Part shown: in pieces, positions 5,083 through 31,052 of the stretch
How the letters are laid out: the number at the start of each line of letters is the position of its first letter
How positions within the stretch are numbered: the first letter of the stretch is position 1
Source of the DNA: Patescibacteria group bacterium
Lineage (GTDB): Bacteria; Patescibacteriota; Minisyncoccia; Phycocordibacterales; Phycocordibacteraceae
Direction of reading: 5' to 3'
NCBI GenBank assembly: GCA_013815345.1
Contig: JACDGK010000007.1
Span: 1 to 46,325 of the forward strand
DNA length: 46,325 nt
Notes under the pieces: model-generated
Seen by the model: only the letters and a program-made list of their open reading frames with translations
Told to the model about the DNA's origin: nothing
The model's database searches: none
Made by a program: the position numbers and the translations under genes

Positions 5083-5655
5083 ATGAAGTCCAGAAGTATT
5101 GAGTCTCACAATCGGGGTTTTACCCTCATTGAGCTTTTAGTGGTCATTGCTATTATCGGTCTCCTCTCATCTATAGTACTTGCTGCGGTCAACATCGCTC
5201 GAATGCACGCTATTGATGCTTCTCGCACCACCAATCTACTTCAAGTACAACAAGCAATCGAACTATACTACAGTGATAACAATCTCTACCCAAAATCTTA
5301 CAAAGAAAATAATCCGCAGAATACGGGAAACGGTATTTTTTATGTTTCCGGCCAATGTGTAGAGGGCAACAAAGCACCGATCATTCCTGACTCACTGGGA
5401 AGATCTGTTATTAATGGCCTACCTCTCGGCAATTTATCAGGTGGGTATATTGCTCAACTCCCCAGTGATACAAAAATGAATGTTAACGGAAATAATTGTT
5501 GCTACACCTATTACGTAACAGCGGATCATCAAAGCTACAAATACACCTTTGACGGTTGTGCGTTAACGGGCTCTGCCGATGGAACCGGATCATTTAAAGA
5601 TCCAGTGCATAGTGGTGCCTGGAGCGTATATTCTCCAGGGGGCGCTAACTTATAA
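5083..5655 (+). CDS. Type IV pilin / GspG-like prepilin
   Basis: Class III signal RG|FTLIELLVVIAIIGLLSSIV, then AIELYYSDN..YP and a Cys-containing variable C-terminus. Confidence 0.92.
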   Translation: MKSRSIESHNRGFTLIELLVVIAIIGLLSSIVLAAVNIARMHAIDASRTTNLLQVQQAIELYYSDNNLYPKSYKENNPQNTGNGIFYVSGQCVEGNKAPIIPDSLGRSVINGLPLGNLSGGYIAQLPSDTKMNVNGNNCCYTYYVTADHQSYKYTFDGCALTGSADGTGSFKDPVHSGAWSVYSPGGANL

Positions 5656-5657
5656 GC

Positions 5658-6377
5658 ATGGCAGCAATTGTCCCTGCCATACTTCCTGTATCGCAAGAGG
5701 ATTTGGAAGACAAACTTGCAGCCCTAGTCGGATTGGTGGATTCAGTGCAGATCGATATTGTTGACGGACGATTCATCTCACCTGCGTCGTGGCCGTATCG
5801 TACAGAATCAGATAAAGGATTGCCATCGTTTGCAGGAAAAACATTTTCGCATCTGGGCCAAATTCATTATGAGATGGATCTCATGGTTTCTGCACCAGAA
5901 GATGTGGCAGGCACATGGGTCGAAGCCGGAGCGGATCGCATCACGCTCCACGTCGAGAGTACGAATTATTTACCCAAAACGATAACCGATCTGGAAGTAC
6001 GGTATGGTCATGCGAAAGATTTTGCTCCGGAACTTCTCGCCATCGGTATCGCACTCAATATTCAAAGTGATCTTGCTATTATCGAGCCCTATATGGCCCA
6101 GATTGATTATGTGCAATTCATGGGCATCGCTACTATAGGAAAGCAGGGCGAACCATTCGATACGCGTGTATTGCAAAAAATCGCAACCTTTAAAAAAAAG
6201 CATCCCGAGATACCGGTGCAAGTCGATGGCGGTGTTTCACTTCAAACAGCTCCGGCGTTGCTTTCAGCGGGAGTGGAACGACTCATCGTCGGTTCCGCGC
6301 TCTGGAACGCACCTGATCTCGCAACGGAACTACAAAAATTCAACGAACTTCTTCACCAATACGGTATCTACACGTAG
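5658..6377 (+). CDS. rpe: Ribulose-phosphate 3-epimerase
   Basis: IVPAIL, QIDIVDGRF, EMDLMV, ITLHVE, GKQGEPF, QVDGGV, IVGSAL. Confidence 0.9.
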   Translation: MAAIVPAILPVSQEDLEDKLAALVGLVDSVQIDIVDGRFISPASWPYRTESDKGLPSFAGKTFSHLGQIHYEMDLMVSAPEDVAGTWVEAGADRITLHVESTNYLPKTITDLEVRYGHAKDFAPELLAIGIALNIQSDLAIIEPYMAQIDYVQFMGIATIGKQGEPFDTRVLQKIATFKKKHPEIPVQVDGGVSLQTAPALLSAGVERLIVGSALWNAPDLATELQKFNELLHQYGIYT

Positions 6378-6429: not shown

Positions 6430-7305
6430 ATGAGTGTTAATGATTCTGAAATAAAAATACTAGAAGAGAAAGCAGAAAAGATTCGCGAGACGATTATCGA
6501 GATGCTGGTAGCTGCGGGAAGCGGGCACACTGCCGGTCCGCTCGATATGGCTGATATATTTGCAGCGTTTTATTTTCATATTCTTAGTCATGATCCGAAG
6601 AATCCCGACTGGGAAGAGCGGGATCGACTGATACTTTCAAATGGGCACATCGTGCCGGTGCGGTATGCCGCCATGGCGCATGCTGGCTATTTTCCTATTG
6701 AGGAATGTCTGACACTGCGGAAATTTGGCAGCAGATTGCAGGGTCATCCAGAGCGTGTGCGATTGCCGGGACTCGAGACAACTTCAGGTCCGCTTGGGGA
6801 GGGTCTTTCGCAGGGAGGGGGTATCGCGTATGCATTTCAAATGGATGCTAAGAAATCAGGAAAACCTGACCACCGCCGGGTGTATGTGGCTATGGGTGAT
6901 GGCGAGCAAGACGAAGGGAATGTATGGGAGGCGGTGATGTGGGTGGGGAAGAACAAGCTGCATAACCTCACAGCGATCATTGACCGCAACAACATTCAAA
7001 TCGATGGTATGACGGAAGACATTATGCCGCTCGAGTCGCTTCGCGCGAAGTACGAAGCATTTAATTGGCATGTGATTGAGGTGGACGGTCACAACATTCG
7101 TCGGTTCATCGAAGCCGTCGACGAAGCGAAAGCAATCTATGAGAAACCAACGGTAATCATCGCACACACAATTCCCGGAAAAGGTGTTCCTGACATTGAG
7201 TTCGATTATCACTGGCACGGTAAGCCACCGACCAAGGAGCAAGGAAAGGATTTTCTCAAAGAAATTCGTACCATGGGCGGCAAAGTCCCGCATGAGTATG
7301 CCTAG
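6430..7305 (+). CDS. Transketolase, N-terminal (TPP-binding) subunit
   Basis: AGSGH, RDRLILSNGH, LQGHP, TSGPLGEG, GDGEQDEG.VWEA TPP motif. ATG 6430 follows an extended -10. Confidence 0.93.
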   Translation: MSVNDSEIKILEEKAEKIRETIIEMLVAAGSGHTAGPLDMADIFAAFYFHILSHDPKNPDWEERDRLILSNGHIVPVRYAAMAHAGYFPIEECLTLRKFGSRLQGHPERVRLPGLETTSGPLGEGLSQGGGIAYAFQMDAKKSGKPDHRRVYVAMGDGEQDEGNVWEAVMWVGKNKLHNLTAIIDRNNIQIDGMTEDIMPLESLRAKYEAFNWHVIEVDGHNIRRFIEAVDEAKAIYEKPTVIIAHTIPGKGVPDIEFDYHWHGKPPTKEQGKDFLKEIRTMGGKVPHEYA

Positions 7306-7345
7306 TTCCGCGAATGCCTAATGCCTTGCAAGCATAATTTTTGGC

Positions 7346-7374
7346 TTGTATATCAATATCTGAGACTGTATAGT
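7346..7374 (+). promoter_or_regulatory. Sigma70-type promoter pointing toward the 3' end of the toxin gene
   Basis: TTGTAT (7346-7351), 17 bp spacer, TATAGT (7369-7374). Confidence 0.55.
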
Positions 7375-7380
7375 AGAGGT

Positions 7381-7457
7381 ACAGTTGGCTTCGGTCCCAC
7401 CTCCGCAAGGAGGAGAATGTAGAAATCCATCAGAACAAATCTCTGATGGATTTTCTT
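7381..7457 (+). ncRNA. Candidate structured small RNA convergent with and overlapping the PemK toxin 3' end
   Basis: cUUCGg hairpin 7387-7396; CCUCC-GCAA-GGAGG hairpin 7400-7413; 12-bp terminator-like stem 7423-7434/7442-7453; upstream promoter motif. Confidence 0.5.
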
Positions 7458-7819
7458 ATATGTGCGAAAGTCTCCCTTTGTAGAAGGCCAATTTTCTCCA
7501 CGAGGCGGCGAGTATCGATAACTCGCATCTGAGAAATATTCGCTCGTGCTGCACGACCATTAACGACACCTACAGAAACACGAAGTGGATGTTCACGAGT
7601 AGAAGTGGTGAGCGGAACGACAAGACACGCACCGTGACCAAATCCGCACAATATGAGTGCGGGGCGTAGAAAATTGTCGCCTCGACCGTCTTGTTCTGTT
7701 CCAATATTTATGCCAAAACGGCACCACCATATTTCTTGGACTTTGTAATATCGAGGATTTTCGTCATTCGTCTTTTTCTTTAGTTTATTCCATTCATCGA
7801 AATCTTTCTCCATTTCCAT
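7430..7819 (-). CDS. PemK/MazF-family endoribonuclease toxin with no adjacent protein antitoxin
   Basis: EIWWCRFGINIGTEQDG...RPALIL...VVPLTT...ISQMRVIDTRRL are PemK motifs; N-terminal KDFDEWN extension. Confidence 0.88.
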   Translation of the reverse strand: MEMEKDFDEWNKLKKKTNDENPRYYKVQEIWWCRFGINIGTEQDGRGDNFLRPALILCGFGHGACLVVPLTTSTREHPLRVSVGVVNGRAARANISQMRVIDTRRLVEKIGLLQRETFAHIRKSIRDLF

Positions 7820-7917
7820 TGAATACTAGACAATGGGTCTTAAAATTCTTCTCTAGATACATTAAAATCTTTCTAAAATTGATAGTAGAGGCGGTGTTGG
7901 TATATAGTAATGGGAGC

Positions 7918-8916
7918 ATGATTAATCCTGAAGCAAAACTCGTAGAAAATCTTTTCGATGCGAAGCTCGAACAGAAACCAACGCGCGATGGATTCGGCAC
8001 GGGCACCGTAGAGGCAGGGAAGGTAGATGAAAATGTTCTCGTGCTCTGTGCGGATCTTTCCGAATCAACGCGCGCAGAATGGTTCCAGAAAGAATTTCCG
8101 GATCGATTCATCGAAATGGGAATCGCTGAGCAAAATATGGCAGCAACCGCTGCCGGATTTGCGCTTGCCGGAAAAGTTCCTTTCATGGCATCATACGCAG
8201 CTTTTTCTCCCGGTAGAAACTACGAACAGATTCGCACTACTATCGCATTGAATAAAATGAACGTAAAAATTTGCGGCATGCATGCGGGCGTCTCCGTCGG
8301 TCCGGATGGTGCAACGCACCAAATGCTGGAGGACATCGGGCTGATGCGCATGTTGCCGGGCATGACGGTGATCGCACCTGCGGATGCAGAAGAGGCACGT
8401 AAGGCAGTTGTTGCAGCGGCGAAAACGTCCACACCCGTGTATCTACGATTTGGCCGCGCTGGAACCCCGGTCTTTACGACTCCTGAAACTCCCTTTACTA
8501 TCGGAAAAGCACTTACCCTCTGGGAAAGCGAGCATTTACAGCCTAAAATAACGATTCTTGCAACCGGTGCGATGGCGTACCAGGCCTTAGTCGCCGCCCG
8601 TGCGCTTGAAGTAGACGGCATCGGTTCAATCGTTAGCTCAGTGCCGACCGTGAAGCCTCTCGATAAAGAAACGATTATTGCTGCAGCAAAACGCACGTCA
8701 CGAGTGGTGACGATCGAAGAGCACCAAGCCGCAGGAGGTTTCGGAAGTGCGGTGGCAGAGATGCTGAGCGAAGACTATCCTGTTCCGGTTACCCGAATCG
8801 GGATACCGGATGTGTTCGGACAGTCTGGTGAACCAGACGAATTACTTACACACTATGGATTATCTTCTGTACACATCGAAGAAGTAGTGCGGAAACTTCT
8901 TAACGTTCCCCTATAA
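7918..8916 (+). CDS. Transketolase, C-terminal (pyrimidine-binding) subunit
   Basis: ADLSEST, EMGIAEQNM, GPDGATHQ, PVYLRFGR, KPLD, IEEH...GGFGS. Confidence 0.93.
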   Translation: MINPEAKLVENLFDAKLEQKPTRDGFGTGTVEAGKVDENVLVLCADLSESTRAEWFQKEFPDRFIEMGIAEQNMAATAAGFALAGKVPFMASYAAFSPGRNYEQIRTTIALNKMNVKICGMHAGVSVGPDGATHQMLEDIGLMRMLPGMTVIAPADAEEARKAVVAAAKTSTPVYLRFGRAGTPVFTTPETPFTIGKALTLWESEHLQPKITILATGAMAYQALVAARALEVDGIGSIVSSVPTVKPLDKETIIAAAKRTSRVVTIEEHQAAGGFGSAVAEMLSEDYPVPVTRIGIPDVFGQSGEPDELLTHYGLSSVHIEEVVRKLLNVPL

Positions 8917-30326: not shown

Positions 30327-31052
30327 ATGGATACAAAGCAAGGGACATCTGCTCCGCAAGGAACACTACAGAACGTCTATGCCCGGAAGTGGACCTTCTT
30401 GGTGGCGTTTTTGGTGATTCTCTTCGTAGTGGTACGCGTGTTCACGGTGATCGGATTCGTCCCGAATCCGATCACGACAACCGTCGCGAGCAATGCCGGC
30501 GACACTATCATGACGCCCGTGACGCTCACGAATTCACCGCTTATCGCGAATGCGTCTGCAAATGGTGGAAATGTGGCGGCAACGAATGGATCGCTCAATA
30601 TGAACGGCGAGCTACCGACAAAAGTGGTAATTTCGAGTATTGGTGTTTCGGCACAGATAGCAAATCCTGCCACGACGAACATCGAAGCACTCGATCAATC
30701 TCTTTTGTCTGGTGCTGCACGTTATCCGACGTCAGCTACGCTTGACCAGCAGGGAACCGTTGTTCTCTTTGGGCATTCAAGCTACTTGCCAGTGGTCATC
30801 AACCGTTCGTTCAAAACGTTTGACGGTATCCAGAATTTGAAAGAAGGTGATCAGATCACCGTCTATAGCACTACACATGTATTTACCTACGCGGTAACGG
30901 GAGTGCAGCATGAGAGCGCGACTTTGGACGCGATCCCGCTTACGAGCACTGGTCATACGTTGGTGCTGGCGACCTGCAATTCGTTCGGACAGAAAACCGA
31001 TCGCTTTGTGGTCACCGCAACGCTTGTTGGAAGCTCTGCGCTTGGAAGCTAG
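30327..31052 (+). CDS. Sortase
   Basis: N-terminal TM segment; catalytic His (LFGHSS), Cys (LVLATC, cf. TLxTC) and Arg (TDRFVV); F..I..L..GD.I.V motif. Confidence 0.9.
   Translation: MDTKQGTSAPQGTLQNVYARKWTFLVAFLVILFVVVRVFTVIGFVPNPITTTVASNAGDTIMTPVTLTNSPLIANASANGGNVAATNGSLNMNGELPTKVVISSIGVSAQIANPATTNIEALDQSLLSGAARYPTSATLDQQGTVVLFGHSSYLPVVINRSFKTFDGIQNLKEGDQITVYSTTHVFTYAVTGVQHESATLDAIPLTSTGHTLVLATCNSFGQKTDRFVVTATLVGSSALGS

Follow-up and report, generated by a model that had tools for sequence, protein, structure and literature searches.

RNA control of bacterial toxins takes several described forms. In txpA/RatA and bsrG/SR4 of B. subtilis, a convergent antitoxin RNA with a strong promoter of its own base-pairs with the toxin mRNA at its 3′ end. 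SymE is AbrB-like and RalR is a DNase, and their RNAs SymR and RalA act at the 5′ end or ribosome-binding region. In ToxIN, CptIN and TenpIN, a tandem-repeat RNA encoded upstream on the same strand is cleaved by the toxin, and the resulting units bind the toxin. The pemK RNA motif of Rfam, credited to Weinberg et al. 2017, is reportedly a structured RNA located upstream of Firmicutes pemK genes without an obvious antitoxin. A type I system, CjrA/CjpT, is ascribed to Shen et al. 2016 (Mol Microbiol 101:909) and is probably the pair CJpv3/pVir0047 treated below. Here, a PemK/MazF-fold toxin gene was analysed in a 46,325-nt stretch of DNA from a Patescibacteria group bacterium (contig JACDGK010000007.1), the whole of which is called the window, and the locus is probably best explained as a MazF-fold toxin with a convergent small RNA (sRNA) of about 78 nt as its candidate antitoxin. 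A single convergent RNA in this role, for a toxin without a protein partner, was the central point of the original prediction, and it was supported by comparative tests and by a homologue on the plasmid pVir of C. jejuni. All coordinates are positions in the window on its forward strand. The toxin and RNA region lies around 7,346-7,819, with the following features (ORF, open reading frame; aa, amino acids):

7346..7374, + strand: sRNA promoter, with −35 TTGTAT at 7346-7351, a 17-nt spacer and −10 TATAGT at 7369-7374
7381..7458, + strand: candidate antitoxin sRNA, about 78 nt long, running from A of ACAGUUGG, the predicted start, as far as the U-rich tail
7387..7396, + strand: hairpin H1, GGC-UUCG-GUC, loop UUCG in 74 of 80 homologues
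7400..7413, + strand: hairpin H2, CCUCC-GCAA-GGAGG, loop GNRA in 53 of 80
7422..7454, + strand: terminator hairpin, 12 perfect pairs (7423-7434 with 7442-7453) or 13 including a G-U pair, 7-nt loop
7430..7458, both strands: overlap of sRNA and toxin ORF, the stop codon (7430-7432) and about nine codons, 29 nt in the window
7430..7813, − strand: PemK/MazF-fold toxin gene, 127 aa from the second ATG; the alternative ATG at 7819 gives 129 aa (ORF 7430..7819)
7823..7828, − strand: possible toxin −10 element TAGTAT, 9 nt before the ATG at 7813; weak, 4/6 matches

The locus shares with txpA/RatA and bsrG/SR4 a convergent, 3′-overlapping RNA with its own promoter and the lack of a protein antitoxin. 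The txpA and bsrG toxins are small membrane peptides, whereas the window toxin is a predicted 127-aa MazF-fold nuclease; moreover, the overlap in the window is short, about 30 nt, and amounts to the shared terminator, and a conserved structured domain lies outside it. The accessible part of PMC5961336 gives E. coli RalR as a DNase and SymR as an antisense RNA. SymE/SymR and RalR/RalA resemble the window in that a cytoplasmic nuclease-type toxin is placed under a small antisense RNA, but their toxin folds are unrelated and their RNAs do not act at the 3′ end. With ToxIN, CptIN and TenpIN the locus has in common an RNA partner, the Kid/MazF-like endoribonuclease fold class and a mobile, phage- and plasmid-associated occurrence. 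Its RNA, in contrast, is present in one copy, convergent and downstream, and neither tandem repeats nor signs of processing sites were found in 7000-8300. A likeness to ToxN/ToxI had also been drawn; it fails at the family level, where the fold is that of canonical MazF and tandem repeats are missing. MazEF and PemIK (Kis-Kid) share the toxin fold and the probable catalytic Arg/Thr pair, and the window differs from them by having no upstream MazE/PemI-type gene, an extra N-terminal helix and an RNA partner. The pemK motif is likewise a structured RNA tied to PemK-family genes without protein antitoxin, but it is said to lie upstream on the same strand whereas the window RNA is downstream and convergent. 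A comparison with Rfam had been proposed for the RNA: no relevant Rfam 15 family was detected at E up to 10 in 6800-8400 of the window and none in 15 + 3 related loci, which extends to the pemK motif and ToxI if these are contained in release 15.

When held against the usual classes, the locus lacks the adjacent co-transcribed protein antitoxin gene of type II MazEF/PemIK systems and the upstream same-strand tandem-repeat RNA gene of type III. A cis antisense RNA overlapping the toxin transcript, as in type I, is present at the DNA level, and the small hydrophobic peptide toxin that is typical but not universal in type I is replaced by a 127-aa soluble MazF-fold protein. Judged from its sequence, the module belongs to the MazF/PemK superfamily by toxin fold, does not fit type II by partner, fits type I by geometry apart from the nature of the toxin, and departs from type III in anatomy.

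The conservation of the RNA was assessed in loci carrying relatives of the toxin gene. A word-indexed search returned 376 toxin relatives, with 63-76% identity among the 119 listed, and those legibly named were Patescibacteria (Kaiserbacteria, Parcubacteria, Sungbacteria) or unclassified metagenome-assembled genomes, except for one Bradyrhizobium record. The latter (P0096), with 127 aa and 69% identity to the window protein, is on a 9.77-Mb Bradyrhizobium elkanii contig, and may represent horizontal transfer or contamination. The loci compared comprised 10 from reference genomes, the best 80 of 402 from metagenomes and 5 from viral contigs, and the stretch beyond the toxin stop could be aligned to the window in every close locus. 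H2, whose variable loops were misaligned by MAFFT, was missing from the RNAalifold consensus, and a covariance model (R1) was hence made from 74 sequences with the structure supplied by hand. R1 matched 7381-7462 (+) of the window with 82.2 bits (E 4.5e-18) and gave one match of 48.7-99.9 bits in each of 86 close loci (L001-L006 and L011-L090; 76 distinct), all 86 opposite the toxin strand, overlapping the toxin 3′ end and in the same register. Matches outside the seed were found in L041, L068 and L071, in L115 (G120) and at five places in genomes G002, G004 and G005, and all of these were convergent to an adjoining toxin homologue, except an orphan in which the toxin gene is deleted (G002:C27).

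Covariation had been suggested as a check on the region downstream of the homologues, and among 80 distinct sequences it was clearly present. Paired cells made up 96.8% of helix cells versus 85.2% after shuffling, compensatory changes were found in 19 of the 23 pairs, and the covariation score was 0.452 versus 0.219 shuffled (0/500 as high) and at most 0.164 with partners slid. H1, H2 and the terminator each vary on both sides of the helix. The middle pair of H1 is G-C in 54 sequences, C-G in 25 and G-U in one; H2 has compensatory changes in 3/5 pairs with 98.2% of cells paired, and the terminator in 14/15 pairs. G-U cells outnumber A-C cells both in the terminator (117 vs 28) and in the whole RNA (125 vs 33), the UUCG and GNRA loops read as stable types on the + strand, as had been foreseen, and the promoter lies at a fixed distance; the functional strand is therefore +. 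Mutual information revealed no further Watson-Crick pairs, only clade markers. One predicted element did not survive: the helix 7380-7386/7416-7421, proposed to close H1 and H2 into a three-way junction, was paired in 50.9% of cells across the 80 homologues versus 51.0% after shuffling (344/500 as high).

The TTGTAT-17-TATAGT promoter pointed out earlier, with 8/12 consensus matches in the window, has a sigma-70-type counterpart at the same register in the homologues: at least 9/12 matches were seen in 66/80 and at least 10/12 in 51/80 distinct homologues, compared with 1.3% and 0.2%, respectively, of random positions in the same loci. The −10 element ends 6 nt ahead of the conserved 5′ ACA in 66/80, and in the window the predicted RNA start lies at this distance, the RNA beginning with a single-stranded ACAGUUG ahead of H1. 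Positions A1, C2, A3, U6 and G7 and the UUCG loop are each at least 90% conserved. At the other end, the 12-bp terminator-like stem noted over the last toxin codons has 12 perfect pairs and covers the stop codon; in its 3′ half it runs antisense to the final codons of the toxin gene, and the overlap of sRNA and toxin ORF is 30 nt in 67/74 homologue loci. The terminator is flanked by an A-run on one side and a U-run on the other and is therefore likely bidirectional. Both transcripts probably end at this shared hairpin and would thus be complementary over about 30 nt. A small ORF within the RNA (AUG-UAG after a Shine-Dalgarno-like AGGAGG in the window) was considered and rejected, as the AUG is missing in the ACAA clades.

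On this comparative evidence, 7381-7458 (+) is a small RNA gene. That there is no RNA gene at all, and that a bidirectional terminator combines with chance structure in the 3′ untranslated regions of the toxin gene and of the neighbouring tktN, is scarcely credible. Folding energy alone would not flag the RNA: 7378-7462 has z −2.85, mostly from the terminator, and 7378-7423, without the terminator, is unremarkable at z +0.57. The fixed distance of the promoter, the covariation of H1 and H2 and the way the element accompanies the toxin gene rather than tktN, as seen in the locus comparison, all speak for a gene, and with the homologous C. jejuni RNA on a Northern blot (PMC3656092, accessible part) the chance reading is already contradicted.

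As originally remarked, only 98 bp separate the divergent starts of the toxin gene and tktC (exactly 98, 7820-7917), and no ORF lies within them to serve as a protein antitoxin. Nor was a MazE/PemI-type gene found upstream of the toxin gene in about 76 loci, and the 808 ORFs of at least 35 aa around these loci contained no recurring family; the largest neighbour-ORF cluster was found at 8 loci and consisted of spurious frames over the RNA itself. Ten long forms of the toxin were scanned, fused to HD, RpiB, GNAT, glyoxalase or HAD or without a second domain, and none of the ten had an antitoxin domain. In P0122, P0186, P0252, P0202, P0229 and P0237, the toxin domain follows HD, RpiB (twice), GNAT, glyoxalase or HAD. 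The long forms may be genuine, arising where a toxin gene inserted in frame at the 3′ end of a housekeeping gene, or may be artefacts of gene calling around a toxin gene that has no leader. A protein antitoxin encoded in trans, with the sRNA only tuning expression, seems very improbable here. Control of solo toxins in trans has been proposed in general (Makarova et al. 2009, PMC2701414, accessible part), but toxin and RNA travel together into unrelated contexts and phyla, where a trans-encoded protein would not follow, and no antitoxin domain was fused or adjacent at any locus examined.

The toxin protein was placed in the PemK/MazF superfamily by a match to Pfam PF02452 (PemK_toxin; 52 bits versus a cut-off of 23.1, E 9.4e-14). 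With only 23.7 bits in the NCBIfam MazF equivalog model, against a cut-off of 120, it is not an orthologue of E. coli MazF. At E up to 1 the toxin matched no other Pfam family and hence no ToxN model. The start at the second ATG (7813) is favoured by the relatives, which are 127 aa long. An AlphaFold model with 88 diverse family members as input reached a predicted local distance difference test (pLDDT) score of 95.4; it was used in place of an earlier, poor model from 31 close sequences (pLDDT 61.4). The top Foldseek matches were MazF-mt1, B. subtilis MazF, E. coli MazF (E 5e-8 to 4e-6) and S. aureus, with TM-scores of 0.59-0.71, and the structural matches listed were all canonical MazF/PemK-type toxins. 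An extra N-terminal helix at residues 5-16 carries the motif FDxWNxxKK, in which F5, W8 and K12 are each at least 90% conserved in the 88 members; solved MazF proteins are not known to have such a helix. T69 was aligned with T48 of B. subtilis MazF by HMMER. R50-P51 was matched to the MazF R-P motif by eye only, as HMMER shifts R50 by an insertion, and R50 is invariant among the 88 members. R50 and T69 are presumably the counterparts of R25 and T48, the catalytic pair of B. subtilis MazF. With its modelled MazF fold and the invariant R50, the toxin looks competent.

In the relatives, a toxin −10 element with at least 5/6 matches ends 4-13 nt before the ATG in 31/70 loci versus 5% of controls, and 23 of these 31 have a TGn extension. 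A Shine-Dalgarno-like core was seen at the toxin start in only 2/70 loci. The missing core in 68/70 and the closeness of the −10 to the ATG in 31/70 suggest that the toxin mRNAs are mostly leaderless or nearly so.

Beyond the close relatives, a profile search of 1.84 billion representatives retrieved 2250 protein clusters, defined at 50% identity, when E was capped at 1e-3 and 1278 when it was capped at 1e-10, and relatives were located on Campylobacter prophages, phages, plasmids and 5 viral contigs. R1 was too narrow for the distant relatives, giving matches in 2/151 genomes of the phylum and, at E <0.001, in 2/19 divergent and related loci (L115, L114), and it was replaced for them by a promoter-plus-fold scan with control. 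Twenty-five distant members, 26-46% identical to the window protein, were examined; they come from other Patescibacteria, from viral contigs and from Campylobacter, Helicobacter and Nitratiruptor plasmids. An antisense promoter no more than 170 nt past the toxin stop was found with at least 9/12 matches in 21/25 versus 24% in the control, and with at least 10/12 in 14/25 versus 5.9%. In the transcripts predicted for them, a short leader at the 5′ end is followed by a small hairpin and then by one rich in G+C, usually with a U-run. In L110, L091, L092, L095 and L112 the loop of the terminal hairpin is approximately UC(A/U)UAG(A/U)G between CCC(C/G)G and CGGGG-type arms; this loop recurs in the RNAs of Campylobacterota and viral contigs and is unlike the Patescibacteria type.

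The experimental anchor for the family layout is located on pVir of C. jejuni 81-176. The gene pVir0047 was matched by tblastn with 33.3% identity over residues 5-116 (88% of the protein, E 2e-12) and carries the FDEWN N-terminal motif as well as the RP and PLSS motifs. The promoter scan placed the start of its convergent RNA at L110:1965, which is pVir 31119. This coincides with the experimentally mapped start of the sRNA CJpv3, which in the accessible part of Dugar et al. 2013 (PMC3656092) is a 77-nt, Northern-positive RNA on the minus strand from 31119 to 31043, classed as antisense to pVir0047 and with a start-site step height of 16164. The same source gives the toxin's own start at 30608 with a step height of 28 and a 26-nt leader on its mRNA, whereas the window toxin mRNA is apparently leaderless. 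The two loci are alike in their homologous toxins, in a convergent RNA (of 77 nt in pVir) with a 5′ hairpin and in a G+C-rich terminal hairpin abutting the toxin stop; CJpv3 has its own extended −10 promoter, and no protein antitoxin gene is annotated beside pVir0047, as in the window. They differ in that the RNA sequences are unalignable, with no R1 match on the pVir locus, and in that the pVir RNA ends 5 nt outside the coding region while the window-type RNA overlaps it by 29-30 nt.

The accessible parts of PMC7826846 and PMC10470494, citing Shen et al. 2016, describe the antisense RNA CjrA as a validated type I antitoxin on pVir; a cjrA entry is absent from the supplement of PMC7826846. As pVir0047 is the only toxin-family gene annotated on pVir, and CJpv3 the only one of the three listed pVir sRNA candidates that lies opposite its flanking genes (orientation ><>), it is quite likely that the published CjrA is CJpv3 and CjpT is pVir0047. 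The window module most likely belongs, as a distant relative, to the same kind of system as the pVir pair.

The mode of action that best fits the module would run as follows. The toxin would be a MazF-fold endoribonuclease made from a mostly leaderless mRNA, and the sRNA would be transcribed convergently, in large excess, from its own sigma-70 promoter. With the terminal hairpin ending both transcripts, the 3′ ~30 nt of the RNA could pair without a mismatch with the end of the toxin mRNA; pairing there would lead to double-strand-specific and 3′-exonucleolytic decay, in the manner of 3′-overlapping type I systems, and so keep toxin synthesis off, and upon loss of the module or of RNA synthesis the toxin would be made. 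Antisense action at the 3′ end is favoured because the RNA gene always abuts or overlaps the toxin 3′ end and the terminator is shared, and it agrees with the step heights in the accessible part of PMC3656092, by which the RNA greatly exceeds the toxin mRNA in C. jejuni. The conserved 5′ domain outside the overlap probably adds a second function, either RNA stability or direct toxin binding, for which the family-specific N-terminal helix would be the candidate contact.

Several points weigh against this account. Toxicity of the protein, its neutralisation by the RNA and the mode of action are inferred. The window promoter is weak, with 8/12 consensus matches; it was missed by a consensus scan and is weaker than that of most relatives. 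The recovery of the RNA by R1 in the 86 close loci is partly by construction, as 73 of them supplied the seed, and the pair counts come from an alignment fitted to the model structure and are biased towards that structure. No complementarity was found between the RNA 5′ domain and the toxin mRNA 5′ end (−14.74 versus −14.60 kcal/mol for shuffled sequences, 69 pairs). The best-conserved part of the RNA is the non-overlapping 5′ domain (ACAnnUGGCUUCGGCC, H2 and GAGAA), which pure antisense action does not explain. Four of the 25 distant members are without a good antisense promoter, and one of these four (L122) seems to have a protein gene there instead. The mapped C. jejuni RNA stops 5 nt short of the toxin stop codon; the coding overlap is thus not universal, and pairing in C. 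jejuni would depend on an unmapped 3′ untranslated region. The identities of CjrA with CJpv3 and of CjpT with pVir0047, in turn, are putative and were reached by exclusion.

The conserved 5′ domain invites a reading of the type III kind, in which the RNA binds the toxin directly and inhibits the enzyme, the single-stranded 5′ ACA(A/G)nUG lying as a pseudo-substrate in the groove and the hairpins on the N-terminal helix, while the 3′ overlap is merely compact terminator sharing. No part of the RNA is better conserved than the non-overlapping 5′ domain, relatives with 30-45% identity at the protein level again show a comparable 5′ leader and H1, the extra N-terminal helix is nearly invariant in the toxin family, and the orphan RNA in G002:C27 persists with intact promoter and terminator without a toxin gene. 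Binding alone, however, would not need the convergent 3′-abutting placement that is kept across the superfamily, and there are neither tandem repeats nor signs of processing sites. The paralogous modules of one genome share the 5′ domain and differ in the terminator stem, so specificity seems to lie in the overlapping part. In addition, the accessible parts of PMC7826846 and PMC10470494 call the reported pVir antitoxin an antisense type I RNA. Taken alone, protein binding is the main rival of the antisense account but appears rather unlikely. Both modes may also be combined, which is possible though doubtful: the 3′ hairpin would silence the toxin mRNA, and the 5′ domain, consisting of ACA(A/G)nUG and the UUCG and GNRA hairpins, would dock on the N-terminal helix and the substrate groove, making the RNA a single-copy antitoxin that unites type I with type III control.

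In ToxIN, decay of the antitoxin RNA on infection is reported to release the nuclease. The module may in a similar vein be an RNA-processing or phage-defence unit, with the sRNA acting as substrate, guide or sensor or being matured by the protein for another role, which we regard as improbable. The presence of relatives on prophages, phages, plasmids and viral contigs, together with a mobile, patchy distribution, would suit such a unit, and the 5′ ACA of the sRNA resembles the motif cut by E. coli MazF. No PADLOC defence model matched, however, conserved neighbouring defence genes were not found, and a guide target was not detected, the 5′ domain being unpaired with the toxin mRNA 5′ end. A defence role would also be compatible with an RNA antitoxin rather than opposed to it.

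As a candidate toxin-antitoxin pair, the module of about 480 bp is, as judged from the loci compared, mobile and multicopy and decays toxin-first. Flanking genes vary from locus to locus, and genomes of 0.5-0.9 Mb carry 1-5 paralogous modules. A family member was detected at E up to 1e-10 in only 15 of the 151 sampled genomes of the phylum. Tandem toxin paralogues were found in L020, L021 and L072; L021 has two identical toxin copies and a third at 37% identity, and L072 has three copies. In 3/86 loci (L041, L068, L071) the toxin gene has a stop or frameshift and the RNA is kept at 74-99.9 bits, and in G002:C27 the promoter, RNA and terminator are kept beside an internally deleted toxin frame. 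A toxin gene without the RNA was not seen in the close clade. L014 contains a second RNA copy (80.5 bits, 2322-2406) with a promoter decayed to 6/12 matches and, on the other strand in the place of the toxin, a HicB-like ORF (79 aa, 2031-2270, −). It seems that one toxin-antitoxin element has here replaced part of another. In the Kaiserbacteria locus L001, a tRNA gene (2587-2657, −; 54.7 bits) lies about 150 nt past the sRNA promoter.

In the window, the toxin gene is flanked by the two halves of a split transketolase, tktN ending at 7305 (+) and tktC starting at 7918 (+), and the 612-nt spacer between them (7306-7917) houses the toxin-RNA module. The two halves adjoin in the five related genomes compared (G001-G005), with spacers of about 35-140 nt in 4/5 as reckoned from match ends, which indicates that the module is an insertion into the spacer. 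The fifth genome, G004, has a 427-nt spacer holding an unrelated 141-aa ORF on the tkt strand. Just upstream of tktN are a type IV pilin-like ORF with an N-terminal GFTLIELLVV motif (5083-5655, +) and an ORF that by eye resembles ribulose-phosphate 3-epimerase (5658-6377, +), placing the module within a pentose-phosphate gene cluster. tktC has a promoter-like site of its own (TTGATA, 18 nt, TATAGT) at 7879-7908. A 19-nt direct repeat (15/19 identical, ATAGTAGAGG exact) at 7370-7388 and 7882-7900, with a spacing of 512 nt, brackets the module; its left copy spans the −10 and 5′ end of the RNA, and its right copy lies inside the tktC promoter-like site. The repeat may be a scar left by insertion, the remains of a second RNA gene or a product of chance. 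A single in-frame TGA was seen both in tktC of G001 (G001:C4:70808-71785) and in an otherwise intact toxin paralogue (L106, G004:C17), and these could be pseudogenes, sequencing errors or recoding.

Apart from passages citing CjrA, no MazF/PemK-family toxin with a convergent small RNA was found in a literature search of partly accessible texts. In the literature as searched, nothing in print appears to cover how large and widespread the family is, that it occurs in Patescibacteria, which RNA architecture it conserves, or that its members, where named, carry a type II annotation. Databases label the named family members found here 'type II toxin-antitoxin system PemK/MazF family toxin' or MazF, and they would count as orphan toxins because no protein antitoxin accompanies any of them. 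With the partner RNA absent from Rfam, an entire class of modules therefore escapes annotation pipelines and toxin-antitoxin censuses, those of Patescibacteria included. The family is large, is spread across very distant hosts and offers a compact model for RNA control of a MazF-fold nuclease, and its conserved 5′ domain leads one to ask whether a single antitoxin can act both by antisense pairing and by binding the protein. If it does, a superfamily of at least 2250 clusters would be under RNA control across Patescibacteria, Campylobacterota plasmids and phages, and a structured RNA could inhibit MazF enzymes.

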